DNA of 64,000 bases, taken from the NCBI RefSeq assembly GCF_032854445.1, contig NC_088304.1, positions 22,425,513 through 22,489,512 of the forward strand, read 5' to 3'. The DNA comes from Liolophura sinensis (lineage: Eukaryota). A program made the translations under genes and the position numbers. The notes under the pieces were generated by a model that worked only from the letters and a program-made list of their open reading frames with translations, was not told the DNA's origin and did no database searches. Below are positions 1 through 33,604 of the stretch, one piece after another (the first letter of the stretch is position 1; each line of letters starts with the position of its first letter).

Positions 1-106
1 GATATACAATGCAATAAAGAAATGCTTAGTGCCATATTAGAGGAGCCAAGCTAGGAACAGATTCGGTACTGTACAGCCACAGCCCTGTTATGAAGAGAAA
101 GCTTAC

Positions 107-247
107 TTCCAGCTTGTAGGTTTCCTTGACAGACTCCATCTTGGCCATGGGGAAGAGTTTGACATACTGCTCCGACCCAACGTCCATGTCCCGTAGCTCC
201 TCCAGAACGTGGCGCAGCTCCGTCCACTGGTTCTCAGACTGTGTCAG
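107..247 (-). CDS. Tandem-SAM protein exon 13 (LTQSENQWTELRHVLEELRDMDVGSEQYVKLFPMAKMESVKETYKLE). The gene continues beyond the window.
   Basis: Acceptor ttgttgttgtag| and donor GAA|gtaagc. It is 141 nt and phase 0/0. Confidence 0.55.
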
Positions 248-333
248 CTACAACAACAACGACATGTCTGACGTGAAACAAACGTGAAAAAGTCCCCGCT
301 GTGTATACATTACATGTAGATGTCTGAGAATAC

Positions 334-382
334 TTGCATGTGATACAGTTCAGCCAACTGACTCTCAGTCAGACTCTGGCCA
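334..382 (-). CDS. Tandem-SAM protein exon 12, 49 nt (-SGQSLTESQLAELYHMQ). It is paralogous to the start of exon 13.
   Basis: Acceptor ttgttgttgcag|. The donor CAA|gtattc is weak. This exon is needed to bring phase 2 to phase 0 between exons 11 and 13. Confidence 0.4.
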
Positions 383-1239
383 CTGCAACAACAACATGTT
401 TAACAAACTCCTATACAAAGTAGGTATGTGAATAGGCTGTTAAAAAATAGTTTGAATTTCAACCAAAATGTTTGACACATGTCTGACCCGGCATGAACCT
501 CCATTAGACAAATGCACTTCTGGATACTTCTGTGTAAAACTTCTTAAATGGTGAGAAACTAGTCTGAAATCTGTGACATACAAGATTTACATACAGGTAA
601 AATGACATTTAACAAACAATAGAACAGATGTCAGGTTCCTTTAATATTTCAGCAAAACATAGCATACACAGAATTTAAAAAAAAAAAACAAACAAATATT
701 AATTTGATTAGTTTTTTAATACATAAGGTTTCACTTATATGATGGTGGTCAGATTTACCAGTGGTATAAACATTGAATACAAGACAAACTCTATCATTAA
801 ATGATAAATGATAAATGACACAGCCACCAGTACATGTCTCCTGTTACACTGTCCACGGAAATGGAAATGCCAAAGACTGAACTTATGCCTTCATACATAC
901 CTTGTTTTTTAATTTCACAATATCATCCGCATTCGCTCCAAGTGACTTACTGTGAAAACACAAATAATCCACAATTACAAAACATCAGAGGAAATTCCAG
1001 AACAATTTCCATATACTAATTTCAGTAAACATGTCAGAAAAATAGATTTACTAGAAGGACAGTAGTCTATGTATGCATGGACCTAAAATAAAAAAAAAAT
1101 ATATTAAACGTCTCATGAAACATACATGTAACTCTAAAATCAAGAATATGGTTATTTGGGAAATAAAGAAAATAGAAAAAATTTAACATTGAAACTTCAC
1201 ATTGTCCAAAATTAAGTATGTTTTCTCCATAATTTCTTT

Positions 1240-1390
1240 CACTTAATTGACTGGTGTTTATACTCACCATACTCAAGAATATTTCACTTGTGCAACGGCG
1301 GCCAGAATTTTGGTGGGAGGAAACCGGACAAAGCCCAGAGGAAAGCCATGACCATCTACAGGTTACTGACAGACCTTCCCACACATGAAG
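1240..1390 (-). mobile_element. tRNA-derived SINE, main family: 3' fragment.
   Basis: It matches the SINE 3' core (...ACCATAATGCTGG...GTATAAGTGAAATATTCTTGAGTACGGCGTAAAACACCAATCAAATAAATAAA) in reverse complement. Confidence 0.7.
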
Positions 1391-1492
1391 AATGAATGAT
1401 TATTGCGTAACACCACCTTACCCACACATGAAGAAGTTTTTTCCATATAACCCTTCCAGAAATTCCTTATGACCTTTAGGAAAACAACGTAC

Positions 1493-1621
1493 CTTGTCCC
1501 AGGTTTCTCTGGCTCCTCCCTCATGATCACCATGTCAACCACTGGTTTACATTTCACAGCCAATAGAAAGTCTTCTTCTGTTTCTATGGTACCCATCAAT
1601 GTACCACACGCCTCCAAAATC
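1493..1621 (-). CDS. Tandem-SAM protein exon 11 (WILEACGTLMGTIETEEDFLLAVKCKPVVDMVIMREEPEKPGT-).
   Basis: Part of ORF 1363..1617(-). Acceptor ctttcag| and donor AG|gtacgt. Confidence 0.6.
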
Positions 1622-2382
1622 CTGAAAGTATAGACACATGTGACTTACTGTACACATGTACACACTTCATGACAGAATACATGTACATCAGGGGCTTTTT
1701 TGTCCAATTCTCCTGTAAGTACCTAGCCTGTCTGGTAAACTACCCAAATTCCTTTAACTTTTAGGGCACCTGGTATGCTTTTTCAGCCAATGTACATGTA
1801 ATTGTACCAGGAATATTTAGTTTTTTTTCTTTTTACACAGTCAGTCCGTCTAATGAACAACACATTCACGTCTTTACCTTTCTCACAAAGTGAGAGATAA
1901 CTTTAACTCCTTGTTTTCAGCCCTACTAATAACTGTCTTAGAAATTAGAAGCATTGGGTTACATGTACTTGTCACTTTTTCTTTGGACATATCTTTCTTA
2001 CATGTACATTATATGTGTACCTAAGGCCAAGTACAAAGCAGCAATGCCAGGATTTGAACCAGTGAGCTGATAAAGGGGACTAAAACCATTTGATACTTAG
2101 AGCATTAGGTCTATTACATCTTTCAGACCATATTTACAAAATAACTTTTTACATTCTTTCATCTCAAGTTTACACAACTTTCTCCATCTTTTTATTAGAC
2201 AATATTTACAAATAACTTTTCACATTCTTTCATCTAAAATTTACGTATTTTCCTCTGCCACTGGTTTGCGTACAGTTTGACCTAATGTTCAACACTCTTG
2301 ATCATTATATGTCTGTTTTGTCTTAGTGAGACAAACTCAACTTTATTCCAATAAGAATACATTAAATTCCCTTTAAACTCAC

Positions 2383-2555
2383 CAATCCCCTTTCCGTAGT
2401 GGTATTGCATTCTTATCCGTCTGAACCACCTTCACCTTTCCTCTCTCTGTGACCTTGACCTTAAAGCCCAACTGCTCATTTAATATGGCTACTTTGACAC
2501 ACAACACTGTAACTGGTTTGCTGGTATCCAGCATAGTGAACAAACTGGACGTTGA
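2383..2555 (-). CDS. Tandem-SAM protein exon 10 (STSSLFTMLDTSKPVTVLCVKVAILNEQLGFKVKVTERGKVKVVQTDKNAIPLRKGD-).
   Basis: Acceptor gttacag| and donor TG|gtgagt. The frame is clean and protein-like. Confidence 0.6.
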
Positions 2556-2940
2556 CTGTAACAGAAAACATATCTTTAACTAGAAGAGGCACACATATGA
2601 AATGAAACTTTCCTGAAAGTTGAATTTTTCAAATTTGCTTCAGATTTTTAAGATGAAAAGAATAAACCATATGGCTTTCACAGTAAATCTAACAGGTTGG
2701 TCAACACCTTAATACTGACTTTAAATCACCTAAAAAATCAACCACAGAAGAGCATTTTTGGAGGGAACTAAGGGTCATGAGATATTGCCTCTATCAGCCT
2801 ACCTTCCAAACACCTCTCTCAAATTACCTTACTAAAATCAATAGAACACCCCGAATCTGTAAAAATAAACAACTTAGTCATGGAGGAATTTTTTGGTGAT
2901 TTAGGGCTATAAAAAAAACCAAAACATTAATACAACTCAC

Positions 2941-2989
2941 AAAAGGCTGCGTCCATTTGGCACTGGTTTCCCTCGAAACAGGAGCTGAT
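2941..2989 (-). CDS. Tandem-SAM protein exon 9, 49 nt (KSAPVSRETSAKWTQPF).
   Basis: Acceptor tttttgcag| and donor TTTT|gtgagt. It restores phase 2 to phase 0, as the flanking exons need. Confidence 0.5.
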
Positions 2990-3389
2990 CTGCAAAAACA
3001 GATGCACTATGCTTTCAAAAACAATCTGGTTCAAATTTTTCACCAAAGTTCATTTTAAACTTCTTCCCAAAAAAAGCCCAGTTTAAGTCTATGATTATGA
3101 CATGAACAGAGCAAATGGGATTCCAGAAAACGAAAAAATGTATAAACGTCAAATACACCTTTTCCAGCCGCTTTATGCAGACATCGTATTAATAAAAACA
3201 ATACAGAGTCACCATGGAAACTGATACATTATAACATTGTAGACGCTGTGCTATGTTCAATAAATTTATCATGTAACCATGGCTTGATGTCAGACTTCAC
3301 CCTACTGCAACCTCACGGGATTAAACAATATTCTGCCTCTCCATTCTTCTTCCCATTTCCCAAGCATGCACTTCTTCCTCTTAATGTTT

Positions 3390-4795
3390 TTGTGTTATTA
3401 ATCATCGATTTCCTGTTGTTTCATGTTTGCTTTTGTGTTATTAATCACCGATTTCCAGTCGTTTCACATTTGCTTTTGTGTTATTAATCACCGATTTCCT
3501 GTCATTTCATGTTTGATTTTGTGTTATTAATCACCGATTTCCAGTCGTTTCACGTTTGATTTTGTGTTATTAATCATCGATTTCCTGTTGCTTCACGATT
3601 GCTTTTGTGTTATTAATCACCGATTTCCAGTCATTTCACGTTTGCTTTTGTGTTATTAATCACCGATTTCCAGTCGTTTCACGTTTGCTTTTGTGTTATT
3701 AATCACCGATTTCCTGTTGTTTCATGTTTGCTTTTGTGTTACTAATCACCGATTTCCTGTCATTTCACGTTGGCTTTTGTGTTATTAATCACTGATTTCC
3801 AGTCGTTTCACGTTTGCTTTTGTGTTATTAATCACCGATTTCCTGTCATTTCATGTTTGATTTTGTGTTATTAATCACCGATTTCCTGTTGTTTCATGTT
3901 TGCTTTTGTGTTATTAATCACCGATTTCCAGTCGTTTCACGTTTGCTTTTGTGTTATTAATCACCGATTTCCAGTCGTTTCACGTTTGCGTTTGTGTTAT
4001 TAATCATCAATTTCCTGTTGTTTCACGTTTGATTTTGTGTTATTAATCACCGATTTCCAGTCATTTCACGTTTGCTTTTGTGTTATTAATCACCGATTTC
4101 CAGTCGTTTCACGTTTGCTTTTGTGTTATTAATCACCGATTTCCAGTCGTTTCACGTTTGCTTTTGTGTTATTAATCACCGATTTCCTGTCATTTCATGT
4201 TTGCTTTTGTGTTATTAATCACCGATTTCCAGTCATTTCACGTTTGCTTTTGTGTTATTAATCACCGATTTCCAGTCGTTTCACGTTTGCTTTTGTGTTA
4301 TTAATCACCGATTTCCAGTCGTTTCACGTTTGCTTTTGTGTTATTAATCACCGATTTCCTGTCATTTCATGTTTGATTTTGTGTTATTAATCACCGATTT
4401 CCAGTCGTTTCACGTTTGCTTTTGTGTTATTAATCACCGATTTCCTGTCATTTCATGTTTGATTTTGTGTTATTAATCACCGATTTCCAGTCGTTTCACG
4501 TTTGCTTTTGTGTTATTAATCACTGATTTCCAGTCGTTTCACGTTTGCTTTTGTGTTATTAATCACCGATTTCCTGTTGTTTCATGTTTGCTTTTGTGTT
4601 ATTAATCACCGATTTCCAGTCGTTTCACGTTTGCTTTTGTGTTATTAATCACCGATTTCCTGTTGTTCCACGTTTGCTTTTGTGTTATTAATCACCGATT
4701 TCCAGTCGTTTCACGTTTGATTTTGTGTTATTAATCACCGCTTTCCAGTCGTGTCACGTTTGCTTTTGTGTTATTCATCTCTGATTTCCAATCTT
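3390..4795. repeat. 43-bp minisatellite of about 33 units (TTTTGTGTTATTAATCACCGATTTCCAGTCGTTTCACGTTTGC, with CCTGTCATTTCATG and CCTGTTGTTTCATG variants), in an intron of the tandem-SAM gene.
   Basis: direct head-to-tail repetition seen in the sequence. Confidence 0.9.
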
Positions 4796-4848
4796 TTCTC
4801 CCATTGCTGACAAAACTTACTGTTAGAGACACAGGTCTACAGACTTAC

Positions 4849-5284
4849 TTGGGTCTGGGTGGAGGGGTGTCCTGCACACAGTGGTTTTTGCGGTAGATGT
4901 TGGTTCTCCGTGGGGAAGACCGCTGTATGGCATGTTTTGGCTGCTCTGTCAGACTGGGTGAGGACTCCTCAGGCTGAGATGATGCCAGCGTGTCTGTGGA
5001 TCCATCCATCTGACCGGCCGACCCCAGATTCCCCACGAACAGCGTGCTGGTTGAACCTGTAAACGAACTATTCAGCGTTCCTGTGGACCCACTCATCAAA
5101 CTCCCACTAAAACTCTGCTCCAGTGCAGCCACCTGGAGGGCTGCGATGTATTTCTGACGGTCAGCATCGGTCTGTATTTTCTCCAGGTCATTCTCCTGGC
5201 TGCTGATTGGCTCAGGGTTCTGGAGTCTATAAATAGTGGAGAGAAGAGCTTCCCGGGCCTCTGTGTCAAACCCCTCCAGATGAT
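4849..5284 (-). CDS. Tandem-SAM protein exon 8 (SAM2 C-terminal segment plus a Ser/Thr/Pro-rich linker ...TPPPRPK).
   Basis: Part of ORF 4845..5300(-). Acceptor ttgtattcag| and donor CCAA|gtaagt (phase 2). Confidence 0.7.
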
Positions 5285-5593
5285 CTGAATACAATAACAT
5301 CCCGAATGTTAAAGTCTTCAGTCTTTACACAGTATGATATATAATCTGTGAAACATCTTAGTCATAAAAACAGATAAAAACTCACAAGGCTGTTCTACTT
5401 CACTTCCTCCATGCCATCAGTGAGTTCCTGAATATAAACCTGAACCCATTATATTTGTCAAGCAACTTAACACTGAAGTCATTTATTGTAAGAGCTTATT
5501 AAGAAAGCCAAACTCAGAAGAGGAAAGAACTCAGATTGTAGCTCGTACATCGATGTGTAGTAAAGAATCAGGATACAAAGTTTAAGTATCATA

Positions 5594-5866
5594 GGGGCCT
5601 CTGTGGCTCAGTTAGTTAGCGTGCTAGCGTAGCGTAATGACCCAGGAGTCTCTCACCAATGCGGTCGCTGTGAGTTCAAGTCCAGCTCATGCTGGCTTCC
5701 TCTCCAGCCGTATGTGGGAAGGTCTGACAATAACCTGCAGATGGTCTTTGGTTTTCCCCGGGCTGTGCCCGGTTTCCACCCACCATAATGCTAGCCGCTG
5801 TCGTATAAGTGAAATATTCTCGAGTATGGTGTAAAACACCAATCAAATAAATAAATTAAGTATCAT
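5594..5866 (+). mobile_element. SINE, main family: full-length copy.
   Basis: It has a tRNA-like head GGGGCCTCTGTGGCTCAGTTAGTTAGCG..., a conserved core, and a CAAATAAATAAA tail. Confidence 0.85.
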
Positions 5867-6709
5867 AGAGTGAAACATTTTAATCGTAGCTGTGTTTGAA
5901 CTATTGACTTAAGTCATAAGACTTTTATAAATATGGGCCCAGGTCCTAAGATCACGAGGCAGTCTTCAACTGAAAAATCTAACATTGTCTTAGTTTCAAA
6001 ACAAATTTATTGTGCTAAATTCTGACTTATGTCAAAAGATAGTATTCTTAAGATTTTCATGACAAAATGGAATCTTAGTATTTAATTTCAAATACATGTT
6101 CAGGAAAAATACCACACATTATGACTGTTGAAGTTTGACTTAATTGGACATAAAAATCGTTTCTGATTGTCTGGAGACAGGCAAGTCTTAACCGTGCCTA
6201 GCCTAAGTTGAATTTTAGGTATGGTAGATTTATTCAAATGTGACCAAAACTGCACAGATTAACCCTGGCGACACATCTCCACTGTCAGCCGATCAGTTTT
6301 GATTCTGTAACCCTTTATGTCTAAAACAGATTTGTGATCTTGGGGCCAGGGTAATTTAACATGGAAGATTGTCTTTCTGAAGTTTTCTCTGATGACAGTA
6401 TTTGACTGATTAACAAATGATACATCATACGAAAAATCATTCGCACATATATTTCCATTTAGCAATATGCTTGGATGAATAGTTTTGGATGACTTGTTGA
6501 GACTTTCAAGCCTAGACAACAGAGAAGTGCTTGATCTGATATTTAGAATTCAGCATTTTGTGTACCTATCAGTCTTGACAACATGATGGTGCTGATGTAC
6601 TTTGCATACAAGTATTTTAACGAATTGCTATGACAGAGACGTGTGATATGTGAGTGTGAATTCAGTGATACACCAGACTCGCATTACATGTGTTACCATG
6701 GAAACTTAC

Positions 6710-6760
6710 CTAAAAAGTTCAGATTATCATCGTTTAAGTCCTTCCCAGCAATTCCATTTT
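6710..6760 (-). CDS. Tandem-SAM protein exon 7 (SAM2 middle segment ENGIAGKDLNDDNLNFLG).
   Basis: Acceptor tttctttcag| and donor TTAG|gtaagt. It is 51 nt, the same length and phase as exon 2. Confidence 0.65.
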
Positions 6761-7134
6761 CTGAAAGAAAACAAAAAAAAAAAACCTTTCAAACAAAAGT
6801 ACAATGTGAATAAAAGAAACAGTTAACATAACAAAACAGAACTGATTTTTTTCCTAAATGTGTACATCAACCAAACTAAATAGATATCCGACGAGAATTT
6901 AAAAAAAAAAGTTATTTAAGACAGACCCATGATAGAGAAAAGTAACGACATAAGAATTTATAAAGTTCCTGGAAGAAAGTGGAGTCAGTTGTGTCTGACA
7001 GGTGATCAGTAAATTAATGTCAACAAATATAACCTAACATCTCTTACAAGTCACGTGATACAGATAGACTTTTTTACCTTTTATAGCAACCAAAGAGTTT
7101 GATGTTAAAACTTCCCTATTCTTCATATAGATCA

Positions 7135-7258
7135 GGTTTATTTGATTGGTGTTTTATGCCGTACACAAAAATATTTCACTTATACGACTGCAGCCAGCAT
7201 TATGGTGGGAGGAAACTCAGTAGAGCTCATGGGAAACTTGTGACAATCTGCAAGTCAT
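7135..7258 (-). mobile_element. SINE 3' fragment
   Basis: reverse-complement match to the SINE 3' core and tail. Confidence 0.7.
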
Positions 7259-7635
7259 GTTAATGGGTGAAAAGACACGGGGGGTGAAAAACATCATTTC
7301 ATTCACCTGTCGCTTTGTACCCAACAATCTCTTAACCGAAAGTATACATGTAACCATTGGTTTTTATTTCTTAATAGCAAATTTAGGACATATCCTAACA
7401 TGTAAAAGTGTAAGAAAGATTCTCAGCTTGTTAATGCGCATATGACCCAAATATGAAGAAAAATTTTCTGATTTTTCTGACACATCTTTCTTCGTTTTCC
7501 TTAAAAAACATGCACTTCAGTTTATAGTACCGTTTCATGCATGCTTTACAGATACCATCAACTCAAGATGGGTTAGCCTAGATAACACCTTTATGAATAT
7601 GAACATTCATGTAAAAACAACAAATGCTGCCTTAC

Positions 7636-7717
7636 CTTGGAAGACTTTAATAAAATGCCCCAGGTTGTTGTTGTCTAGCCACCTCACAACGTCTTCAGTG
7701 GACCAATCAGAAAGCGG
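7636..7717 (-). CDS. Tandem-SAM protein exon 6 (SAM2 first segment PLSDWSTEDVVRWLDNNNLGHFIKVFQ).
   Basis: Part of ORF 7607..7840(-). Acceptor aaatccag| and donor CAAG|gtaagg. It carries the SAM signature WSTEDVVRWL. Confidence 0.7.
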
Positions 7718-8429
7718 CTGGATTTGTAATAAAAAGAAAAAAAAACTTATTATAAAATACTTATTAAAGCTCCACAATGTTGTCCAGGAAACACAGACTG
7801 AAATTAACTTGCTAATAATCTTCATATAATGAGGAGTCATTCAGTGTGTGGGTAAAGATGGTGTCTTCTTGTGGCAGGGTGAGTCTATGCTGCCAAAGTG
7901 CTGCTGCCACTGACACGACTGAAGTATTATGCTGAAGACACCAGACATGACACTCCATCAAGTCACCTTATACTCATACTAGGCCAACCAGATATGTTTT
8001 CTTCCTCTAACCTCTCAGTGCTGAGAGCCAAGCGAGGAAGCAACAGGTTTTTGGTATGACCCGACCTGGGTTTGATCCCAGGTTTTCCGACTTGAATATT
8101 ATTATGAGTATTATGTAAACATGACACTGTGATGACACGATTGTAATATTGTTAAAGCGCTACTTCAGTCCTAAGAGACGCTAGGCAGAAATATCAAATG
8201 ATATGAAGGATACCCTAGGGAAGAGTGCTCACATTACACTATATTACCCTTTTATAAGTTAACAAAAACAAACTCTGTGGCAGTTTCCGTAAAATTTTCC
8301 TGATGTGGCGTGATAATATTCCTTGTGTGACAATGTGCCAGGCAGATGTGACGTCGAGTAAGGCAGTTATGCTGGAATGATGCATGTTTGAAAGTATGAC
8401 ATCATTTGTGGCTATATGTCAGCAATGGG

Positions 8430-8640
8430 AGACGCCATTGTTCTTGCATGACACCACACCAGGCAAAACTGGGAACGACAGAAAATTTTTGTTTCCACAC
8501 TATCCTCGGAAACTAAAAACAGCGGTTTTAATCCATTACGACTTTTTTCACCATTTAGGAAAGCAATCGCGATCCTTATCATTTAACCGTGCTTTTAAAC
8601 ATACAGATCTTTACGCTGTAGCAACTCTTTAAGGTAATCA
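8430..8640 (+). repeat. Interspersed repeat 'family C', copy 1
   Basis: It shares about 200 bp with 30545-30725 (...CAGGAAAAATGGGAAACTAGACAAAAT...ATTTAGGAAAGCAAT...TTAAAACATACAG). Confidence 0.5.
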
Positions 8641-8712
8641 ATCTAAATTCACACTGAACACAAACACATTCCCAATCTCCGCAGACTTCATTCAAATTCG
8701 TTCAATACTCAC

Positions 8713-8741
8713 CTTGTTTGTGTCAGTCCCGTACGAAGGAT
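8713..8741 (-). CDS. Tandem-SAM protein exon 5, a 29-nt microexon (DPSYGTDTNK).
   Basis: Acceptor ttttcccag| and donor CAAG|gtgagt. It converts phase 1 to phase 0, as the flanking exons require. Confidence 0.45.
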
Positions 8742-9672
8742 CTGGGAAAAGCAAAACCAAGAAAATGACACTGTTGCTTGACGCACATGTAAACAATAAC
8801 ACTGGATATCCATACTGCGTGCCACGTGTTTGACAGACTTATTGAGTCATTGATACTAAACGTCACAATCTAAACTGTTTCACTTATGTAACACCGGACA
8901 GTTTTATGGGTTCACAAAAATGCGTAGGACATTTTTTTATTGTACATTTGTACGCCACTATTACTGTAATATTGTCCTAGATGTATGGTTATGGCACATG
9001 TACGGCATCTTTGTGAAACACGCAGTTTTCGAGTTACACCATTACGACAACAGAATGACGTCCCGCTGCGAAATGAGGTCGCCACTTTACACAGTAGGCA
9101 CAGTAGGCACAGTAGGGCTACTTGCCTATCTTTAAACATGGCGGTGATCACGTTTAGATCAAAGTACCGGCATAACATCATTTTTTGTGCAATATTGAAA
9201 ACGCAAATCCACCCAAAAACACAATTCAGAATATCAGTGTAATTCTTTTAATTAGTTCTCTATATTTTATAATGTGCTCCATGTTAAAATTACCAGACTG
9301 GCCCTACCGTGCCGTAAAGCGACGACGTCATATCACAAAGGGACGTCACTCTGTTGTCGTAACATCATATCTGGGAACATGCGTATTGGGCTTTGGAGTG
9401 TCCGGAGTAAAGCACTTACCTTTGTCACGAGGATTTTTCGCGTGTTTAACTACAGACCTGAATGCTATATTGGCAGAAGACACTGACAAGTGGTGATCAA
9501 GGGACATAACACTATGAATACAGTCCTACCCATGTTACTGACCTCTTTAATATTGACAAAAAGTCTCTATGAATAGTGACAGCAAGAGAATCTACGAATA
9601 TGGAAAGTACATGTCTAAAGAATTACTTTGTTATAATAACAAGTTATTTCCACACTAATTCATTTCTCTTAC

Positions 9673-9853
9673 CAGACTGATCTATTATCTCCCTTGACAG
9701 GAGTTCTTTAGTCTCCAACTGCTCCTGTTGTATTTCATGCAAAGATGAACTAATCTTTTTCTCCTGCTCCTCGTTCAGTTTCTGAAGATTTTCCAGATTG
9801 GCGTGAAGCTGCTCAGTGGACCTCTCCAGGTTTCGTCTCTTCATCGAAACTTG
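9673..9853 (-). CDS. Tandem-SAM protein exon 4 (coiled-coil QVSMKRRNLERSTEQLHANLENLQKLNEEQEKK...).
   Basis: Part of ORF 9644..9928(-). Acceptor tattttcag| and donor CTG|gtaaga. It has a heptad-like charged pattern, and it starts in phase 0, matching exon 3 which ends in phase 0. Confidence 0.6.
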
Positions 9854-10320
9854 CTGAAAATAGCAATGTTTTGCACGTTTACAAAATACTATTAAAGTCC
9901 GTGTCTGTAGTGAATGGAATACTACCAAAAAAACAAACCAGTGGTTCTAACCAAACTACTTGCAATGATCACAAATTGACAAATTCAAACAGTATACCAC
10001 ACTCAACCTTTTTCTCCCTCTTAACACTGAAGAATACCACAATAACGTATCACTTGTACAACTGCTACAATATCACACCAACCTCCAGCATATAATATTT
10101 TTGGATGTCACATGAATGTGCATTGCACATGTACAATATTTTGTGCCTTTATGAATGAATGGCTTAAATTGACAATACTATTTAAATTAACTTAAAACTA
10201 ATTTGCATGTTGCATGCATGTCACATGCACACAAGTACAATATTGAGTACCTTCATGAATGAATGGATTGCTTAAATTTACCTGTTTAAATTAATTTGCC
10301 ACAATACACTTTTGATGTAG

Positions 10321-10323
10321 CTT

Positions 10324-10356
<33 letters not shown>
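10321..10356. repeat. poly(A) homopolymer of about 36 nt
   Basis: seen directly. Confidence 0.95.
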
Positions 10357-10357
<1 letters not shown>

Positions 10358-10947
10358 AACATTGGTTACTGCCCAATAGTTGATCTTCCTAATGGCGGTG
10401 AATGCCAACAAACTCATTATACAAGGTCTGTTAAAGAAGGTACGTGTTAAATTGTGGAATGAGCTGTAAGTAATTGTTCCTAAGTGTGATGAAAATTTGG
10501 ACACAATCCTGAAAAGACTGAAAAAAAAATTGGCCAGATTGTACATGTATTTTATGTGTCCTTACCATATTTGTACTGTGGAGATACAACTATACCATGT
10601 CAGGACCAAAACATGTATTGTGTTACATTGATAGTTATGTGGAATGGTTATGACGGCTACAAAGGCAGTCCCGTCTTAGTTCTGAGATCAGTCTATCCGA
10701 GAGCTTACAAGTTTTCATGGTAAATATTCTTTTCAAAACGGAGTGCATGTGTTCAGTACTCTCATTAGAAATACTATTCACAAAACAAACAAACAAAGCA
10801 ATACTTATAAAATATTTTAATACTGTCTCTCAAACATCTACTTATACCTTAGATACACGCCCACATATCGTCCACTGCTTGTAGTTTGTTATCTTATTAA
10901 GGCAAAACTTAGTCTTTTTTCCCAGTGATTTTAATTTTCTACTCACA

Positions 10948-11088
10948 TTTATTTATTTGATTGGTGTTTTACACCGTACTCAAGAATATTTCACTTATAC
11001 GATGGCGACCAACATTATGGTGGGAGGAAACCGGGCAGAGCCCCGAGGAAAACCCACGACCATTCGCAGGTTGTCTACTCGCATACAT
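10948..11088 (-). mobile_element. SINE 3' fragment
   Basis: reverse-complement match to the SINE 3' core and tail. Confidence 0.7.
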
Positions 11089-11430
11089 CAGGCATGTGTA
11101 ACACTGGAAAAATACATGATGGTAACCAAACCTTGGGATTGTCAAAAATAAAGTGATGCCACACTGTAATTCTTCGATCGTTTCACATGTTTGCAAGGTG
11201 TTATTCAAGCATATTCTGAAGGCATTATTCTGTGCGGACTGATAAAATTATATTTGTTGTGAAGCCCTTAATTGGCCAATCCAGCCCATGTAGTTTGTCT
11301 CTAACATGTCCAAATTATAAATGTGCATAAACTGCACTGAAAGTTAATCTTTCATATTAAAGAAGGTTGAGGAGTTATATTAATCAATATACAAGCTGAA
11401 GTCATGTGACCTCACAGGAGCAACACATAC

Positions 11431-11534
11431 TTGTACTTTGATGGACCAAAGAGATGACATTTCGCGATTTGTGACGTTTTTCACTTCTGCCAGAAACTTC
11501 CTTCTGTCCACAATGCTACGCAAACCCAGTTCAA
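11431..11534 (-). CDS. Tandem-SAM protein exon 3 (SAM1 C-terminal segment VELGLRSIVDRRKFLAEVKNVT...).
   Basis: Acceptor ttttcag| and donor CAA|gtatgt. It aligns with the SAM2 third exon (DHLEGFDTEAREALLSTIYRLQ) and the phases fit. Confidence 0.55.
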
Positions 11535-12019
11535 CTGAAAACCAAATATGACCGATATTTTATGAAACATGTAGATGACAAAGTACAGTGCATGAAATAT
11601 GATAATAAGTGAAATTTATATTTTATAACGGTAAACACCTGAATTTTATGAAGTACTGTTGAACAGATGTGTCTTTTTGGCTTACACCAGAGTTACCACT
11701 TTCACATGTACAAAGGTTTCCTCCTGAATTCGATCAAAATGTTGTCGCCTGTGTAGAAACTCAAAGTTTCCATACTCATCTCTAATATTTCAACATAAAC
11801 AATTGCAACTTTTTGACACAACAGGAAACAACAGTTAATTTTGACTCAATTCGTACATGAAAGACAACAGCTGCTTAAGATTAAGAGATTAAAGGTCTAC
11901 ATACCAGCCAATCTTAGCCATATAAGACCCAAATCTTGATCAATCAGTTAAGAATGTAGAAATATTACACATTATAAGACTGCTACATGTGCAATTGAAT
12001 GGCTGTTTTTGAAACATGA

Positions 12020-12172
12020 TTTATTTATTTATCTGCTTGTAGTTTTACATTGTGCTTAAGAATATTTCACTTATTCAACAGCGACCAGTGCTATGGCAGG
12101 ACGAAACCGTGCAGAGCACAAGGAACACCCACTGCCATTTACAGGTTGCTGACAGACCTTCCCTTGTACAAC
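12020..12172 (-). mobile_element. SINE 3' fragment (diverged)
   Basis: reverse-complement match to the SINE 3' core and tail. Confidence 0.6.
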
Positions 12173-12397
12173 CTGAGTGGAAGTTTTTGAACACGAGTTC
12201 AGTAGAAAAATAACTATAATTTACCACGTGAAGTGGGCAATCTGCTTGTATTCTGTCTCTTCCACCTTTCCAAAATAAGTGTGACGGCCATGTATATATA
12301 CGTACCTCATACAGATGATATTAATACCTGTACAAAAGCTTACATACGCTGTATCTAACATGTCTGAGAAAAGTTAAAATTCACACATATACTTCAC

Positions 12398-12448
12398 CTA
12401 GAATTTCATCTGTAATATTTGAGAGATGAGATCCTGTTATACCAGCAT
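12398..12448 (-). CDS. Tandem-SAM protein exon 2 (SAM1 middle segment NAGITGSHLSNITDEILG).
   Basis: Acceptor ttccag|ATGCTGG and donor CTAG|gtgaag. It shares phase 1/1 and alignment with the SAM2 middle exon (ENGIAGKDLNDDNLNFLG). Confidence 0.65.
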
Positions 12449-13663
12449 CTGGAATATCAATAACAATTGGCATTACCAATCTCCAGTGAACCACAAACGT
12501 GTGCAAAACTGCAAACTTCTGTGCACAGTTCACATGTACGTACATGTATTTATATACACTGTCATTCCTACAGACAGAAGCCCTATGATAAGACAATAGG
12601 GGAGAAGTTCAATACATAGCCAGCAGGTCAGCTTCATGTAAGAGGCTATTACCTGATCATACTGTGATTAGACAGGTATTCAGGCTTAGGGTGAACAAAA
12701 TCCTTTTCTTTATGTGTCATGGGCTTTATTATCATCATCAAAAAAAACATGCCCTGTGTATGTAAAGTTTTTAAATCATTACATACTGGATTAAGGAGGG
12801 AAGATACATGTGCATATAATAATGTTTTGAGACATTTTAAGGCCTGTCACTCAAAGTCTTACAATTTACCTTTTAGTGAAAAAAGAAAATAATTCAGCCT
12901 ATAATTAAACATTATTCTTTATGCACTTGTCCACATCTTTATTTTCTTTTGAATTCATTGATGTAGGACTTTAAAAAAAACATTGAAAAAAGCTTTTAAA
13001 AAATGTTCAGCCTGTAAAAAACACTCTTTTAGAAACTCATAAAGACCTTAAGTAAATATTTTTGATGCCACCATTGAAAGTTTCTGATAAGAAATTGATC
13101 ACACGTCATACAAAATAAGTCTTCAGTGGAGGACGAATCAATACCAATCAAGCAGGATATGTCGGTTTTAAGAATACATTGTATTCATTTCACAGCCTAG
13201 AGCAGTTAATGAAGAGCGTAGAGAATATATTATTTTCTCAATAAAAATTCTGATGCTCCTCAATTAAGATCGGGTCATTCCAAGTCAAATCAGCCCCCCA
13301 AAAATTTTTTTTTGTGGTGACCCTCTTGGATTTTCCTGAAAAAATTCCTTGACATATCTGAGGAAAGTTTCCCAAGTTACAGCCCCAAATTCGAAGTGGT
13401 TTTTGAGATATGAGTATCTAAAAATAATAAAATATAACAAACAATTATTTAGGAGCCTAAAATTGGGAATATTTGCACGATACAACGTTATCTTTGTGAC
13501 ATGTATAATGTGACCTGGGCACACTTTGAGGTTATAATTTTTACTTTGAGCTCTCAAAAATGAGTGAATGACCACACATTCTGACCCTTGTGAAAGTTGT
13601 CCTTTGACCATACGTTGAATTAGTCCTTAACTTTAGCAGGATTAAAAGTGGGAGCACACTCAC

Positions 13664-14342
13664 TGTGGAAGATCTTTGGCAGTTTGTTTATGCCCAATCC
13701 CTTGCTCCACTCGACGACGTCCTCCGTGCTCCAATACTCTGTTGGTTTGAACCTCCAATTTCTGCTTGTCAATGCGCTATCCACTGACCCTACGTTCCTC
13801 ATTTCTTGCAGGTCTGAACCCCGATGACCAGTTGCTTCTCCATCTTTGTCAAGAGTGCCACGTCGTAATGTTGGACTGGGTGTATCAAACACATCGCTGT
13901 CTGTGCTGGTTTCGGAGAAGCGCCGCCCTGGCATATACCGCTGTGACAAGCTGCGAACAGATGGCAGCGATGACACTGAGCCGCTGTCGCTGAGTGACAC
14001 ATCGGCACTATGTCCTTTGTCAGAACTGATCGATCTAAGAGGACGACGCGGCTTGGCTTTTATCGGCGGCTTTCCTGACCGTTCAGATAACCGCCTCACT
14101 GACTTGTTCTCCGAAGGATCTTCTTCTCCGTCAGTAAGCGCATGCCGGGTGTTATCAGAGGAGTGACGAGGGCTGTCACTGACACTGGAACTCTTCACTG
14201 GAAGTGTGCATGACGCTGAGTTGCTCAACCGTCCTACAGCCTTGTGTGAATTGTTACCATCATCTGATTTCTCCTGTAGGAACAGTCGCTCTTTGCTTTT
14301 CTTTGGAGACAGCTTGTGCAGTCTGGAGATGAATGCAGACAT
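13664..14342 (-). CDS. Tandem-SAM-domain protein, coding exon 1: Ser-rich N-terminus plus the first segment of SAM1 (...EYWSTEDVVEWSKGLGINKLPKIFH). The ATG is at 14342 and the donor is GTGAGT (phase 1).
   Basis: This is the 5' part of ORF 13620..14393(-). It carries the SAM signature W-S-T-E-D-V-x-x-W. The donor is CA|GTGAGT. The ATG has a Kozak-like context gagaccATGt. The gene may have unseen 5' exons. Confidence 0.6.
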
Positions 14343-17300
14343 GGTCTCACCTTCCCATACATCACAGTCCTTCACAACATCACAGTCCTTCACAACATCG
14401 TTCCATTATGTTCTGCATCTGCACATGAACATTTACATTAAAAATACTACAATGGTTCCTACAAATACTAACATTCAAAGTTACAGTTTTTAGGATGGCC
14501 CCAAACCAACATAAGAGCTCGCTTCATTTAAAAACCGGATGCGGTTACCTGCCCTTGTCAAATATGTCTTGGCTGTCAATACAGCTGTTTGCTCTAAGCA
14601 TCAGCAAGGAATCTCGGACCAATGCGGTTTAGGAAATAACAAGTTGACCTTGTGCTTACGATAAATACACAGACAAAAAGATAAGGAACATAAGCGTATA
14701 CAAACTTAAGGCTGTGGAGACGTATTTCATAGATAATTTTTTGTCTCAAATGCGGTGACACACTGCCACCGCAACTGCATTAGGCTATTAAATGGAGCAC
14801 GCTCTGACATTGGTTTGGGGCAATCCATGGCCAAACAAAATTTCACCAAAACTAACGTCAGAGCAATCTCGAACTTGTTTCACAGTGAATGGTATTCCTA
14901 TTTGTTGAGGCTTCTTCACAGATCTCCTTGGCATTTTATCATTTTTACTGTTTTTACAGTAGGCCTATAAAAGTTGAACATAGGTTCAACCATGCTAATT
15001 TGATGAATGGAAAAGATCACATTACACAGCAATGATTTCACCAGTTAAACTTTGATGATGTTTTTTTTTTTTTTGTTTTTTTTTCACATCCAGCATTCAC
15101 TGACCAAATAAATATCAGCGGGGGAAATGAGGGAAGACGTATCTTTCTTGCTAATTACAGACATGATGAGACTATGAAATCAGGCTGTTTCTTCCATGTT
15201 GTACCTTTCTTATCTATTTATTTTATCCAACACTTCATTACAATATGAGGCTTTCCTTCATCCATCACTTCTGTCCTGGCTTTCAGTAGAATGGGGTGTC
15301 TCAAAGACACTAACACACCTAAGTCCATCCAGAATGTCAGAAATTTAAAACAGCACACTGAGTCTATACGCTACAATGTTGAATGTCAGAATTTTAAAAC
15401 GGGCCATCAAGTCCATTTATCTTGTTGGACAGTAACATTATACGAACACAATCTATATGCCGCAGCCAAGCAGATTGGAAACCTGTACATCAGAGAAGAG
15501 TTGAAAACTGATTTTCTAGTGTTAATTAAAGCCCTTGTTAAATCATGCAGGCTTACCTGCTGAACTCAGACCATACATTCGCTAAGCCTGTCGTCTTTAA
15601 TCTGATTTGAATAGGACCAAACTAATTTACGTAGGCTTAAACAATGTTCGAAGAGCATTTTTCTCATTTCTAATTAAATTACAACATGTTCTCTTATTCA
15701 GATTCTTTTTAACAACCACAGTGAACAATCCACATGTTAAAACGCCTTTCATTTTACACTCTTTATTCGTTACTTTAAGCTTTAACATCTTTCTCGCAAG
15801 TTGCCTCCGTTGTTGTTGTAACGAAGAATTTCAGGAACGGGTTAACTGGCTGACAGCTGTCACTTCGTTTGACTTTACTGTGACAGGTCAAAAAGCTTTA
15901 GAAATATCGTGCAGATGCAGATGCTTTTAGGCCACTTACCATTAAAGATTTGGCGTGCATTTGAACAAACTTCAAGGACCACGGCGACACCTTATTCTAA
16001 ATATAGAAACAAGCGTGAAAATGTAAATTAAATTCTCGCATTTCCGGATTGGAAGGGGAGATGATACCACGTCAAAGTTATCCGAGTTGCGTCCCTTTGC
16101 TGAGCAGATGCCCGACACAAAATTTGTTTGATATTATTCATCATGTATACCTTACCTATCGTTTTCATTTTTCCTGCAGCGCAGCCTGGTTGGAAACGAT
16201 CTTTTAGGCACGATATGGTTACATGTAGCCTATTTGTTATGTGGGCCTATTGAGCCCCGTTGTTAAATCTGACCTGTGGAAACAGTAATAAATACAATGG
16301 GTGTTTCAACTACCGCGCCTTTCATACTCAACACCTGGATTGTCTTTATTCCCCATGGGATCAATTTGTTACAGCATAGTGCTTCTCTTTATTCAGCATA
16401 ATTTATTTATTTCATTGTTGTATAATGCCATATTCATGAATTTCTCAATAATATCATGCTTGTCAGTTTTATGGGTTGCGGAAACTGGAGTGGTCGGAGT
16501 GAACCACATTTGGGAGTTTTCTCACGTGATGTAGATATACGCACGAGCTGAAGACAATACAAGCAGATATGAGCAGATATACAAGCGCCCTCACAATCAG
16601 TGAGTCATTTTAATTATTTTGGTAGCATCATAACCAGCGCTTTCATACCAGGTCTGCCATGTCCACGTTAAAACAACTTTATTCTGAATCCAGTCATTTT
16701 CGAATTCCTTCACCTGGATTTTCGGCCAAGTCAACACTGTTGTCAACACAGTCACGTCAGGCGAAATCAGGCTACGGCGCAGGATCTGCAGGTGATTGAA
16801 CTGATGCCTATTCACGTGCCATTTTTTAATTGAATTCATGTTGAGAAGCAGGATTTCACGTTAAATGAACTATATCCCCCTGGCAGACAATAGAGGAAAC
16901 CTCACAGGTTAATCCTTCACAATCAAATGCAGCAGCATATTATCTTATTATCCATGTTGTGTTTTGTTTAGGCCATGTTCATCTATTCATGGAAAAATAT
17001 AGAGTTTCGCTTTACACATAAAAGTACATCATACTTTTTTAAGCTATTGCAGGACAACGGCAAATATTTCAACCTTTCACATTAAGAAGAAAGATACCAT
17101 TACATCGCAGATTTGACCCTTACCAAATAGTTGGCCTCTATATAAATACCGTTTTGTGCAGTGCATTGTCCATGCCCTTCCTTCCAGTATTTCTCTGATA
17201 TTTGGATGGCTATGGCCTCCTTGTGCACAAGTAACTCATAAACATAGCACTAGCATAATATGAAATGTCATTGCCGCACAATTTCAACTCAGAGAAGCAT

Positions 17301-17833
17301 AGAAACAGTAATGGTGAATTTGCAGGTTTTGTTTAAAATGAATTGATAGATCAGATGCAGATACATGTATTTACAAAATGGAATCGAAATGGGAATATCA
17401 AGGTTCTCACTCTACTTCCCGGTTCCTTTGCAAGGTTACTATTTATATCACAGGTACTTCAAATGTGAGGACAACACTTCTAGACTACTGCCGTATAGTA
17501 TATTCTGCTCAAGCCATGGGCCTAGGGGCTTGCAAGTTGCTACTAATTAAGCATTTACATGAAATTAGACTAAAACTCCAAGGTAAATTGACAAGAAGTC
17601 TTGTCTAAAAAAATCTAGTGCAATCTGTCTAATACGCACATAGAAAATATCAAATCCACAATGTTACTGCTTCACTACCAGTTTTATTTCACAAGAAAAA
17701 ACAATTGCAAACTACAACCACAAAATAGCCATGATTAAAGGAGATGAGAGCTTTTTGTGGTCAAAATCTGGTCGAAACAGCTTGGACTGGTGATGATCAT
17801 ATATTAACATATATATATATATTTATGGAAAGT

Positions 17834-17839
17834 TTTATT
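17834..17839 (-). terminator. XBP1: Candidate XBP1 polyadenylation signal (AATAAA on the minus strand).
   Basis: AATAAA lies about 48 nt after the XBP1s stop codon. Confidence 0.4.
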
Positions 17840-17886
17840 TACACACATATGATTTTCAGTCATAAAAAGTTTCAAGGCAGCGTTTT

Positions 17887-18588
17887 TCACAGAAGATCTG
17901 GGAAAAGATCTGTGAAGGAGTCTTCCCACGGGTCATCTCCAAGAGCTGGAGTCATATTGCTGCAGGGAGAGTCTACATCACTGCTGGAGTCACTGAAACC
18001 TGAATCAGTGCAGGACACAGACAATGGGGATAAAGCCATTACAGATTGAGAAAAAGATCCAAGAGACTGTTCAGGAGACAAAGCACTTGTGTACTCTATC
18101 TCGGGTATGTCAGCGAGTACAAACTTCTGTTGAGTACTGTTCGGTTTTTCTGATTTCACCACAATTGTCTCCCCTTGTGAAACATTACTGGTTTTCTCCT
18201 TTGGTTCAGCAGGGACGGCCTGCATTAAGAGAGTCTCTAAATCTTCCAGAACCAGGTCACTGGTTTCCATTGGAATTTCGTTTTCTTGTTTGCACAGTGA
18301 ATTCATGTCACATTGAATTGTGTCCTCTTTCACACATTCCGTCTCCTGTTTGACCAAGGTCACAGGTGTACCACTCTGCGTCTTGTAATACACATGGTCA
18401 AATTTGATCAGTTCTTTGACGGATTCCAGCTCCTCTGTTGAGGGCCCCACCACTTCAGGCTGCGTGCTGATGACCGTCTCACTGGGGACAAATCCAGAGG
18501 TGCAATCTGCTCCCAGTTTTGAGTCTCCAGGTTTTTCTTGGCTTGCTTCATCTGTGATTTGCTGGAGCAAGCTAAGCAAAAAGTCAGA
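17887..18588 (-). CDS. XBP1: XBP1 exon 3, read in the XBP1s frame (transactivation domain ...LESVKELIKFDHVYYK...DPWEDSFTDLFPDLL*).
   Basis: ORF 17887..18579(-). Acceptor ccatttcag|. The C-terminus matches human XBP1s (LEAINELIRFDHIYTK ... SWEDTFANELFPQLISV). Confidence 0.85.
   Translation of the reverse strand, partial: SDFLLSLLQQITDEASQEKPGDSKLGADCTSGFVPSETVISTQPEVVGPSTEELESVKELIKFDHVYYKTQSGTPVTLVKQETECVKEDTIQCDMNSLCKQENEIPMETSDLVLEDLETLLMQAVPAEPKEKTSNVSQGETIVVKSEKPNSTQQKFVLADIPEIEYTSALSPEQSLGSFSQSVMALSPLSVSCTDSGFSDSSSDVDSPCSNMTPALGDDPWEDSFTDLFPDLL
18408..18588 (-). CDS. XBP1: XBP1 exon 3, read in the XBP1u frame (unspliced isoform C-terminus ...SLTFCLACSS...QQRSWNPSKN*).
   Basis: Part of ORF 18408..18635(-). 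It ends ...SWNPSKN (human XBP1u ends ...SWKPLMN). Confidence 0.75.
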
Positions 18589-19116
18589 CTGAAATGGAAA
18601 AAGAGAGGCAAATTAGAACAGGTTTCAACATTCAAGCAGATTATGTCTACATCAGTAATTTACAAATGCATCTGAAGATATCAAACCATACAGAAAATCA
18701 TCACAGAAAACACAAGACATGCTGATACTATTATATACACACTGCATGGACTGAACATACCAATACTCCAGCAGGACAAACAAATTTCACCTGGCACAGC
18801 AAAATATCCTTTTGCATTTTGGTGTCAGAATTGTATTTTAATTTTCAATTGAGAATGATCGAGTTCTAATAAATTGTTTGGCCCCTTCCTCCCAGATCCC
18901 TTAATATGAAACCTGGACCCTTTTTGACCAGTTTCTCATCTTTGAGACAACTCTGGGAATATTACTTGATCAAATGTCAGACTCCCCTTCTCAGGTGTGA
19001 AACAGATTATTCAATGAACAGACATGATATTCTCTACCATGTGAGCTGCTAGCTGATCCCTACATTATCCTATCCCAGTACATCCTGCATTTTAGAACTC
19101 TTGCACTTGCACGCAC

Positions 19117-19446
19117 CTCATTGTCAGCATGAAGCTCAGACAGTATGTCACCCAGTGGGAGAGAGCTTGAATCTGCTCCTGCTGCAGAGGAACGTTGAGT
19201 ACTGCTGACTCAGGGGATTCAAGCTCTTTCTTGGTGGGGACATGACTGCTGTCCAATTGGCCCAGGCGCTGTTTTAGTTCTTGGTTTTCTTCGGACAATC
19301 TGCCAGATTTGTTTTTCAGGCTGCTGTTCTCTTTCTGTAGCCTTCTGTTTTCTGCTTCTAGTTCAGCCACACGGAATTCAAGGTCTGTCATCAAGGCCTT
19401 TTTACGATCTCTTGCTGTTTGTGCGGCCACTCGGTTCTTCATTTTC
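19117..19446 (-). CDS. XBP1: XBP1 exon 2: bZIP basic region, leucine zipper and the IRE1-processed segment.
   Basis: Part of ORF 19092..19442(-), KNRVAAQTARDRKKA. Acceptor aaacag| and conventional donor AATGAG|gtgcgt. Confidence 0.85.
19185..19204 (-). other. XBP1: Predicted unconventional (IRE1/RtcB-processed) 20-nt XBP1 intron.
   Basis: The mRNA reads ...CCUGAGU[CAG|CAGU]ACUCAACGUUCCU[CUG|CAGC]AGGAG. It has two 7-nt loops (CAGCAGU and CUGCAGC) closed by stems UGAGU/ACUCA and UCCU/AGGA. Removal shifts the frame by +1 to give ...ESAAGA (human XBP1s reads ...ESAAGAG). Confidence 0.75.
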
Positions 19447-19943
19447 CTGTTTGAAATGAACAGATGGCAAATATAGAAAATAGATCAACACATTTTCTTG
19501 CTAAACATCTCACTCGAAAAATATTATATGTTTAAGTCTTACAAACTATACATTTCCTGTTCTGATTGCATCATATTCCTGTTTCGTTTGGCAGTTTTAT
19601 GAACTACCGGTATTGATTAAGCGGTTTGTTTGAAACAGATGGAGCAGTTTAATAAACTAGAGTTTCCCAAATTTGTTTCAAAATGGTTAATTTGTAGGCT
19701 ATATTTACAAACTAGACACACACATGGCACTTTTGGCAATCTACTGGAATGAAATCTAGAACAATAATAATCAAAGCCAGTTTACAAGTCTTCAGCCAAA
19801 AGCGGCCGATGTCACTTTTACACTGAATCCTGAAACGAAAGTTACCGAAACTTTTCAAATGTTTTTTACGGTGTGCGTCTTCACAAATCTTAACGACACC
19901 TTTTTTCGTCTAACCCTGGCTGATTTTCGGACTTTTGTCTTAC

Positions 19944-20107
19944 CTCCTCATGATTTTTTCGTCTTGAGAAAGGTGAGTGAGCCGCCGTCTTTTCCGTGGA
20001 GCCGTCTCCATGTCGCCGTCGGAGTTGTCAGACGACACAGACAAGCTGCTGGCAGGTCGGCGAACTGTCGTGATCACTATCGTTTTCGGGGTCAAATTAG
20101 TCGTCAT
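19944..20107 (-). CDS. XBP1: X-box binding protein 1 (XBP1) exon 1 (MTTNLTPK...APRKRRRLTHLSQDEKIMR-). The ATG is at 20107.
   Basis: It translates to RKRRRLTHLSQDEKIMRR, close to human RKRQRLTHLSPEEKALRR. The donor is GAG|gtaaga. Confidence 0.8.
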
Positions 20108-31706: not shown

Positions 31707-31903
31707 AGGTATCATCCTACCATCAAGATAAAACTCGAAACATTTTTCCAAGACCAAAAGAATGTTCAGAATCCATCAAGATCAGTAACTTTGTCATGGA
31801 GAGGAGGAGGGGGTTAGATTTTTTGTTATCATGAGTGCTTGTGGTTAAAACAGAGGTCAGTTTTTTAAAATATTGCTAATTTTGTTTGTCTGATTTTGAT
31901 TAG

Positions 31904-32130
31904 GAACTTACATTCCTCGTAAGGAAGTTATAGTGGAGGAAACGATCAGAGCGACTGTCATCAAGCCTAACCAGGCCATTCGTCTGCGGGCGCGCAAAGA
32001 GTGCGTGGACAGGGAGGGTGACTCCAGGGTGACAGGTGAAGAGTGGCTTGTTAAGAAGACAGGTGCTTACTTACCTGGGGCCTATGAGGAGGTGGTCGAT
32101 GTTGTGAATGCCTATGTGCTCACAGAAAAG
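31904..32130 (+). CDS. MVP: MVP exon 4
   Basis: [50 protein letters not shown]...VLTEK. Donor AAG|gtgaga. Confidence 0.9.
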
Positions 32131-33517: not shown

Positions 33518-33604
33518 GTAACCGAATGTTCCAACCTTTCATCACATAAAGATAGTTCTAGCATGTGTAATGAGGAAGCCATTAACATGTATGGAAATAT
33601 AATA

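Follow-up and report, generated by a model that had tools for sequence, protein, structure and literature searches.

The window analysed here, a stretch of 64,000 nt from the genome of Liolophura sinensis (NCBI RefSeq assembly GCF_032854445.1, contig NC_088304.1, positions 22,425,513 to 22,489,512 of the forward strand), carries on its minus strand a predicted gene for a protein with two SAM domains (hereafter the SAM gene, with SAM1 and SAM2), in which each domain is split over three exons by phase-1 introns at identical positions. This shared structure would be best explained by an old intragenic exon-block duplication, in which a cassette of three exons (82+51+104 nt, outer phases 0-0) was duplicated in tandem and made both SAM domains. 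We consider it probable that the second cassette arose in this way and was not imported from another gene. With its exon joins predicted from the genomic sequence, the SAM gene is read with reasonable confidence as one spliced protein-coding gene, probably with a single transcript, which begins at about 14.4 kb and continues to 4.85 kb at least.

Membership of both domains in the SAM family is confirmed by full-length profile matches above the curated cut-off. When Pfam was run on the spliced products, as had been suggested in the original prediction, one full-length SAM domain was recovered in each. SAM1 matches the SAM_2 profile with E=1.5e-9 and 38.4 bits (cut-off 20.5; positions 2-65 of 66) and the SAM_1 profile with E=2.4e-7 and 31.5 bits (cut-off 23; positions 2-62 of 64). 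The corresponding SAM_2 match of SAM2 has E=2.9e-6 and 27.8 bits (cut-off 20.5; positions 4-65 of 66), its score against SAM_1 being 20.0 bits and under the cut-off of 23. Both SAM_2 matches, which are above the gathering score, cover all three exons of the respective domain. Moreover, the alignment of SAM1 to the SAM domain of SHANK2 runs ungapped for 65 residues across both SAM1 junctions, which can therefore be taken as exact, and the profile match lends support to the predicted junctions of SAM2. The motif W-S-T-E-D-V-V-(E/R)-W is present in both SAM first exons, just as claimed before, and these are its only two occurrences on both strands of the window. A third SAM domain was not found, as only two starts of the form W[ST]xx[DEQ]Vxx[WFL] exist in the window on either strand.

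All six exons encoding the SAM domains lie where they had been predicted, on the minus strand, with canonical splice sites and open frames (Table 1). Their donors read, in order, GTGAGT, GTGAAG, GTATGT, GTAAGG, GTAAGT and GTAAGT, and the acceptors are pyrimidine-rich (...TTCCAG, ...TTTCAG, ...ATCCAG, ...TTTCAG and ...ATTCAG), with canonical AG/GT throughout. Splicing of 13664-14342, 12398-12448 and 11431-11534 yields an open product of 278 aa from the ATG at 14342, and splicing of 7636-7717, 6710-6760 and 4849-5284 gives an open product of 189 aa; a partial protein of 718 aa, assembled in the earlier reading of the locus, was not reproduced. The third SAM1 exon ends in phase 0 and fits the phase-0 start of the first SAM2 exon, with all exons on one strand. 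GC content ranges from 0.42 to 0.55 in exons versus 0.33 to 0.39 in introns. Exon 1 reaches a codon log-odds of +114 bits. Furthermore, a related contig of 1.4 kb from the Logan run SRR26493808 (L001, 84% identical) aligns only with 13646-14424, comprising exon 1, its leader and the adjoining 18 nt of intron, and has diverged flanks, thereby providing an independent mark of the 3' boundary of exon 1. The encoded protein would consist, in this order, of a Ser-rich N-terminus, SAM1, a spacer which may hold a helical exon of 60 aa, SAM2 and a low-complexity tail.

Table 1. Predicted exons of the SAM gene and other features of the window (positions refer to the window).
Feature	Position	Strand	Details
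Exon 1	13664..14342	minus	ATG at 14342; about 200 aa Ser-rich, then first third of SAM1 (...KPTEYWSTEDVVEWSKGLGINKLPKIFH); donor GTGAGT, phase 1
SAM1 middle exon	12398..12448	minus	51 nt, phase 1/1, NAGITGSHLSNITDEIL; AG/GT, open frame, within the SAM_2 match
SAM1 third exon	11431..11534	minus	104 nt, phase 0 at its end; VELGLRSIVDRRKFLAEVKNV...IKVQ; donor GTATGT
Helical spacer exon	9673..9853	minus	181 nt, phase 0 to 1; acceptor ctattttcag, donor CTG/GTAAGA
Tentative bridging exon	8713..8741	minus	29 nt, DPSYGTDTNK; would restore the frame from spacer exon to SAM2
SAM2 first exon	7636..7717	minus	82 nt, phase 0 to 1, PLSDWSTEDVVRWLDNNNLGHFIKVFQ; donor GTAAGG
SAM2 middle exon	6710..6760	minus	51 nt, phase 1/1, ENGIAGKDLNDDNLNFL
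SAM2 third exon	4849..5284	minus	end of SAM2, helical stretch and Ser/Thr/Gly-rich tail; codon log-odds +95 bits
Possible PDZ-like exon, first half	2383..2555	minus	...NEQLGFKVKV...PLRKGDW; codon log-odds +11
Possible PDZ-like exon, second half	1493..1621	minus	ILEACGTLMGTIETEEDFLLAVKCKPVVDMVIMREE; joins 2383 in frame via a split TGG codon
GC-rich exon-like segment	107-247	minus	GC 0.55, ttgttgtag/.../GTAAGC, encodes LTQSENQWTELRHVLEELRDMDVGSEQYVKLFPMAKMESVKETYKLE
18-nt tandem repeat CCTTCACAACATCACAGT	14350-14399	minus	2.7 copies, leader just upstream of the ATG
XBP1 orthologue	17887-20107	minus	directly upstream of the SAM gene; bZIP basic region NRVAAQTARDRKK..., Pfam bZIP_1 E=4e-11
SINE-like repeat copies	1229-1391, 5591-5863, 7137-7258, 10947-11074, 12011-12183		

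The two domains share 31% amino acid identity over 70 aa in an ungapped alignment (pairwise E=4e-9) and 42% identity at the nucleotide level; the copies are old. Counted from the aligned proline codon of this alignment, introns follow nt 82 and nt 133 of SAM1 as well as of SAM2, all four are in phase 1, and the middle exon has 51 nt in both, so that the common positions and phases put forward in the original prediction hold for both copies. For two random introns in a domain of 198 nt, the chance of both positions matching is 1/C(198,2), or about 5e-5. The repeat unit of 82+51+104 = 237 nt has outer phases 0-0 and is therefore a cassette that can be duplicated in tandem without a frame break; the SAM1 copy is fused at its 5' boundary to the long first exon, and the SAM2 copy at its 3' boundary to the C-terminal exon. 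The codons of the shared WSTEDVV motif differ between the copies (AGC/TCC, ACG/ACT, GAG/GAA, GTC/GTT and GTC/GTG), which argues for maintenance of the motif by selection at the protein level and against recent gene conversion. On a common scale for comparisons among the SAM domains and with PDB entries (phmmer, Z=177,635), the best match of SAM2 among everything compared is SAM1, with 22.5 bits versus 18.4 bits for its best PDB match, SHANK2, and SAM2 has the appearance of a copy of SAM1 that has diverged. On the same scale, SAM1 matches SHANK2 with 33.1 bits (E=6e-7), SHANK3 with 26.6 bits, DGK-delta with 25.3 bits and CNK2 with 23.9 bits (E=4.8e-4). Literature on intron positions in SAM domains and on exon duplication was searched with no relevant result.

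Between the two cassettes lies an additional exon-like segment, 9673-9853, which had been described as a coiled-coil exon. Its 60 aa are rich in E, L, Q and K and devoid of Pro and Gly, the codon log-odds amount to +26.7 bits in frame, with negative values in both other frames and a maximum of 15.7 bits over 2000 random intronic windows, the GC content of 0.44 is exon-like, and it is not a member of a dispersed repeat; hence, this spacer exon is probably coding. In heptad a/d occupancy it does not surpass shuffled sequences (p about 0.10-0.17), and therefore 'helical' is the safer term. A coding-like helical exon does lie between the SAM domains as predicted, whereas its coiled-coil character is not borne out and its 181 nt break the frame. 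As the exon begins in phase 0 and ends in phase 1, direct in-frame splicing to 7717 is not possible, the straight join reading G/CC GCT TTC TGA and thus ending in a stop codon. With thresholds on a polypyrimidine score and a donor-match score, 8713-8741 was the sole candidate for a bridging exon that passed and restored the frame (17/20 pyrimidines, AAG/GTGAGT). The chance expectation for such candidates is 1-4 (up to 8) per phase combination per intron, and 8713-8741 was accordingly not accepted as an established exon. Another candidate bridging exon, 2828-2906, was rejected as being at chance level and having a negative coding bias. When the third SAM1 exon is spliced straight to the first SAM2 exon, the product stays in frame and the linker between the domains has about 18 aa, compared to a spacing of about 90 aa with the spacer exon. 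Three gene models remain: inclusion of the spacer exon together with some further mini-exon, skipping of the spacer exon with closely spaced tandem SAM domains, and use of the spacer exon as a truncating alternative exon.

Downstream of SAM2, the exon-like GC content and positive coding bias of 2383-2555 and 1493-1621 draw attention to a pair of putative exons whose joint translation resembles a divergent PDZ domain, showing the elements xLGF and GDxIL as well as a terminal V-x-M-x-I-M-R strand. Its match to the Pfam PDZ profile (E=0.18, 12.6 bits, positions 9-81 of 81) is below the cut-off of 23.2 bits, and the best two PDB matches, the PDZ domains of RIMS2 and LIMK2, are weak (E=0.58 and 1.2). 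That these PDZ-like exons are part of the SAM gene is possible. Still further downstream, segment 107-247 has a coding bias of +35 bits, the third-highest on the minus strand of the scanned part of the window (1-17886), and its frame shows no direct connection to the PDZ-like exon; it may belong to the SAM gene or to the next gene. A weak match of this segment to Pan3_PK (E=0.033) was judged likely spurious, and three-frame Pfam scans for other downstream domains were empty.

Several points weigh against the duplication. The SHANK2 SAM domain is a better match to SAM1 (33.1 bits) than SAM2 is (22.5 bits), and therefore import of a cassette from a different gene sharing these ancestral introns is conceivable; such introns are possibly common to unrelated SAM genes. 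The only relative found is the 1.4-kb contig over exon 1, with exon connectivity being predicted, and inclusion of the 181-nt spacer exon disrupts the frame if the putative 29-nt exon is not used. Oligomerisation and scaffold function of the SAM protein are likewise drawn from analogy. For the ancient exon-block duplication of the original prediction, the intron positions, the 0-0 cassette and SAM1 as best match of SAM2 thus speak in its favour, and the closeness of SAM1 to SHANK2 does not. An inheritance of the intron positions from the ancestor of a SAM subfamily, with the second cassette coming from a different SAM gene through exon shuffling, would suit this closeness as well as the phase symmetry, which makes the cassette capable of shuffling. 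Nevertheless, we regard this origin as unlikely, given that nothing compared matches SAM2 better than SAM1, that both cassettes are adjacent in one gene, and that the nine residues W-S-T-E-D-V-V-x-W are found in both copies but not in the aligned SAM domains of SHANK2 and liprin-beta. Much less plausible still is the erroneous merging of two same-strand neighbours, one gene with SAM1 (plus the helical exon) and one with SAM2. An in-frame ATG at 7840 does exist upstream of the SAM2 exon in the same open reading frame (ORF), the intron following the third SAM1 exon contains AATAAA and ATTAAA motifs, and the joining of SAM1 and SAM2 exons in one mRNA is predicted from the sequence. However, the SAM2 exon begins exactly at the domain boundary after a strong polypyrimidine tract and AG, the third SAM1 exon has a good donor in the matching phase 0, and the gaps are just 1.6-3.7 kb, filled with repeats resembling short interspersed nuclear elements (SINEs) as typical of introns.

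Compatible with the intragenic duplication, the main mRNA might skip the 181-nt helical exon, so that the tandem SAM domains would be spaced closely, by about 18 aa, as they are in Caskin, ANKS1 and SARM1. Splicing of the spacer exon straight to SAM2 would then result in a stop after three codons and, hence, in a SAM1-only isoform or a target of nonsense-mediated decay. We see this as a possibility to be taken seriously, albeit not the expected one: the flanking SAM exons join in frame (both in phase 0), the direct join of spacer and SAM2 exons runs into the above stop, and the single bridging candidate is no better than chance, yet the helical exon combines strong splice sites with an in-frame coding bias of +26.7 bits, which suggests translation within a longer product, and the sites of the 29-nt candidate are very good. 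Quite another matter is the assignment of the gene to a known family, for which the CNK family (connector enhancer of KSR) comes to mind, the gene being a divergent member, since SAM1 matches the SAM domain of CNK2 and a PDZ-like exon pair follows downstream of SAM2. To our knowledge, CNK is the only known family with a SAM domain upstream of PDZ. This assignment is considered highly improbable, since CNK proteins have one SAM domain and not two, the SAM domains of SHANK and DGK-delta outscore that of CNK2 against SAM1, the PDZ match is under the threshold with only putative membership in the SAM gene, and a CRIC domain was not detected even at E<=10 in the 146 aa after SAM2, nor at E<=1 in the SAM1 product.

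Searches for relatives of the SAM gene, comprising word-indexed searches with the spliced products and an exhaustive HMMER search of 1.84 billion representatives with exon 1, returned a single match, the genomic ORF P0001 from the Logan run SRR26493808. Exact-sequence look-ups of ORFs from the window had no match. A control query with a fragment of the vault protein gave 92 matches to animal major vault proteins, the best named one being from Patella vulgata (91%), indicating that animal and mollusc proteins are present in the collection, though patchily, and that the failure to find an orthologue is therefore weakly informative. Either the SAM gene is fast-evolving or lineage-restricted, or its orthologues are absent from the collection.

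Upstream, the block of the SAM gene is bounded by the XBP1 orthologue, the last large ORF of which ends at 17887. The latter gene contains a full-length match to Rfam RF04247 (bZIP non canonical Hac1/Xbp1 intron) at 19161-19228 (47.5 bits, E=3.5e-6); the Hac1/Xbp1 intron is an unconventional intron spliced by IRE1. The 3.5 kb that separate XBP1 from the ATG of the SAM gene (14343-17886), translated in three frames, revealed no Pfam domain and no ankyrin (ANK) repeat at E<=1, and therefore the ankyrin exons once suggested for 14400-17800 are not there. The 18-nt repeat in the leader has more copies in the related contig (L001, 144-259); due to its period being a multiple of 3, an upstream ORF stays open in L001 and has misled the ORF caller behind P0001. 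At the other end, the 4849 exon terminates with ...PPPRP, AA/GTAAGT, which can be read as a phase-2 donor or, if unspliced, as K-TAA, with the TAA at 4846-4844. Within 2.3 kb downstream of this exon neither AATAAA nor ATTAAA was found, weakly favouring continued splicing past the 4849 exon; the SAM gene probably reaches beyond 4.85 kb and may run off the end of the window. About 50 nt past the 4849 exon, a 43-nt minisatellite (3388-4798, 32.8 copies, 91% matches) is located in what would be an intron or the 3' untranslated region.

Several introns of the SAM gene harbour the SINE-like dispersed repeat, which is about 150-270 nt long, is present in at least 15-19 copies window-wide and yields recurring pseudo-ORFs (e.g., ...GGNRAQPGENQRPSAG...) falsely scoring as coding. 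An Rfam scan gave no match inside the SAM gene itself, and no intact tRNA was found in the window with ARAGORN. Elsewhere in the window, a major vault protein gene with many exons extends over about 31900-41600 on the plus strand (Pfam Vault repeat with E=6e-17 in the ORF 31933-32220). Also on the plus strand, the ORF fragment 47739-48188 matches Pfam IU_nuc_hydro (inosine-uridine preferring nucleoside hydrolase) with E=1.6e-6 but below the gathering score and is probably one exon of another gene. Two tandem arrays similar to the 43-nt minisatellite were noticed at 56626-57901 (78 nt x 16.5, creating a spurious ORF of 318 aa) and 62858-64000 (47 nt x 24, cut by the end of the window).

Built as bundles of five helices, SAM domains commonly bind head to tail via mid-loop and end-helix surfaces, and SAM1 and SAM2 would make SAM-SAM contacts in the same manner. 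With two such domains per chain, an intramolecular pair and/or a polymer or network would be permitted, leading to an adaptor or scaffold. Pairing within the chain followed by polymers or branching has been described for tandem SAM domains (PMC10252437). By analogy, an oligomerising adaptor or scaffold role is most likely for the protein encoded by the SAM gene. Its Ser-rich N-terminus is probably disordered and shows RRxS-type motifs (RRLSE, RRPLRSISS and RRFSE), the last two of which are conserved in P0001 and are candidate phosphorylation or 14-3-3 sites; all three motifs would be candidate phospho-regulatory sites. Going beyond this, one might speculate, with little confidence, that the gene represents a lineage-restricted (molluscan?) family of multi-SAM scaffolds composed of disordered N-terminus, SAM, helical spacer, SAM and divergent PDZ, with spacer inclusion acting as isoform switch. 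If true, inclusion of the 181-nt exon would switch the product between a scaffold with two SAM domains and a truncated isoform with one, and the domain architecture would be unlike any of the five described multi-SAM groups. The duplication itself would be a clean textbook case of a frame-neutral exon cassette whose intron positions were kept long after the sequences had diverged. It is of modest value for genome annotation and for comparative study of the origins of SAM scaffolds, being ordinary gene evolution that overturns nothing.

The known multi-SAM proteins are SASH1, SARM1, ANKS1, the liprins and the Caskins (PMC10252437), and the view of the original prediction that no known family fits holds up against the defining features that were tested: for Caskin/ANKS1, SASH1 and the liprins, one such feature in each case was not encountered, and neither were the N-terminal repeats of SARM1 or the CRIC domain of CNK. 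In the 278-aa N-terminal product, Pfam detects SAM only, with no ANK, ARM, SH3 or coiled-coil family in the first 200 aa. A TIR domain was found neither in the SAM2 product nor in the raw frames of 1-3390, where split exons are hard to detect, and the same restriction applies to PTB, which was not seen in the Pfam scans.

Like Caskin1/2 and ANKS1A/B, the predicted protein has two SAM domains in one chain, an arrangement known to give intramolecular SAM1-SAM2 pairs and higher-order oligomers (PMC10252437), and if the spacer exon is skipped, the short linker between the domains would be a further likeness. Unlike these proteins, which bear N-terminal ankyrin repeats, no ANK, SH3 or PTB was seen for the SAM gene, and with the spacer exon included its SAM domains are about 90 aa apart. 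The SARM1 architecture, with ARM/HEAT repeats preceding the SAM domains, differs from the SAM-only 278-aa product. With SASH1, the predicted protein has in common two SAM domains, separated and non-adjacent if the spacer exon is included, and long disordered regions, whereas SLY/SPIDER and SH3, which precede SAM1 in SASH1, were not found in the 200 aa preceding SAM1 here. Moreover, the SAM domains of SASH1 are separated by more than 400 aa, compared to at most about 90 aa in the SAM gene (PMC10252437). The SHANK proteins provide the closest solved SAM domain to both SAM1 (33.1 bits) and SAM2 (18.4 bits), but possess ANK-SH3-PDZ followed by a single C-terminal SAM domain in place of the order SAM, SAM and possibly PDZ-like. 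The CNK/CNKSR proteins are similar in the order of SAM and PDZ(-like) and in the CNK2 match of SAM1 at E=4.8e-4, and dissimilar in that the SAM gene has two SAM domains, no CRIC and a sub-threshold PDZ match (E=0.18). Liprin-alpha/beta and Kazrin are multi-SAM proteins as well, with three SAM domains after long coiled coils in contrast to two after a disordered Ser-rich N-terminus; in liprin-alpha, an insertion is present between SAM1 and SAM2. As tested, the SAM gene would encode an unclassified multi-SAM protein standing outside the Caskin/ANKS1, SASH1 and liprin groups and, judged by its N-terminus, outside SARM1.

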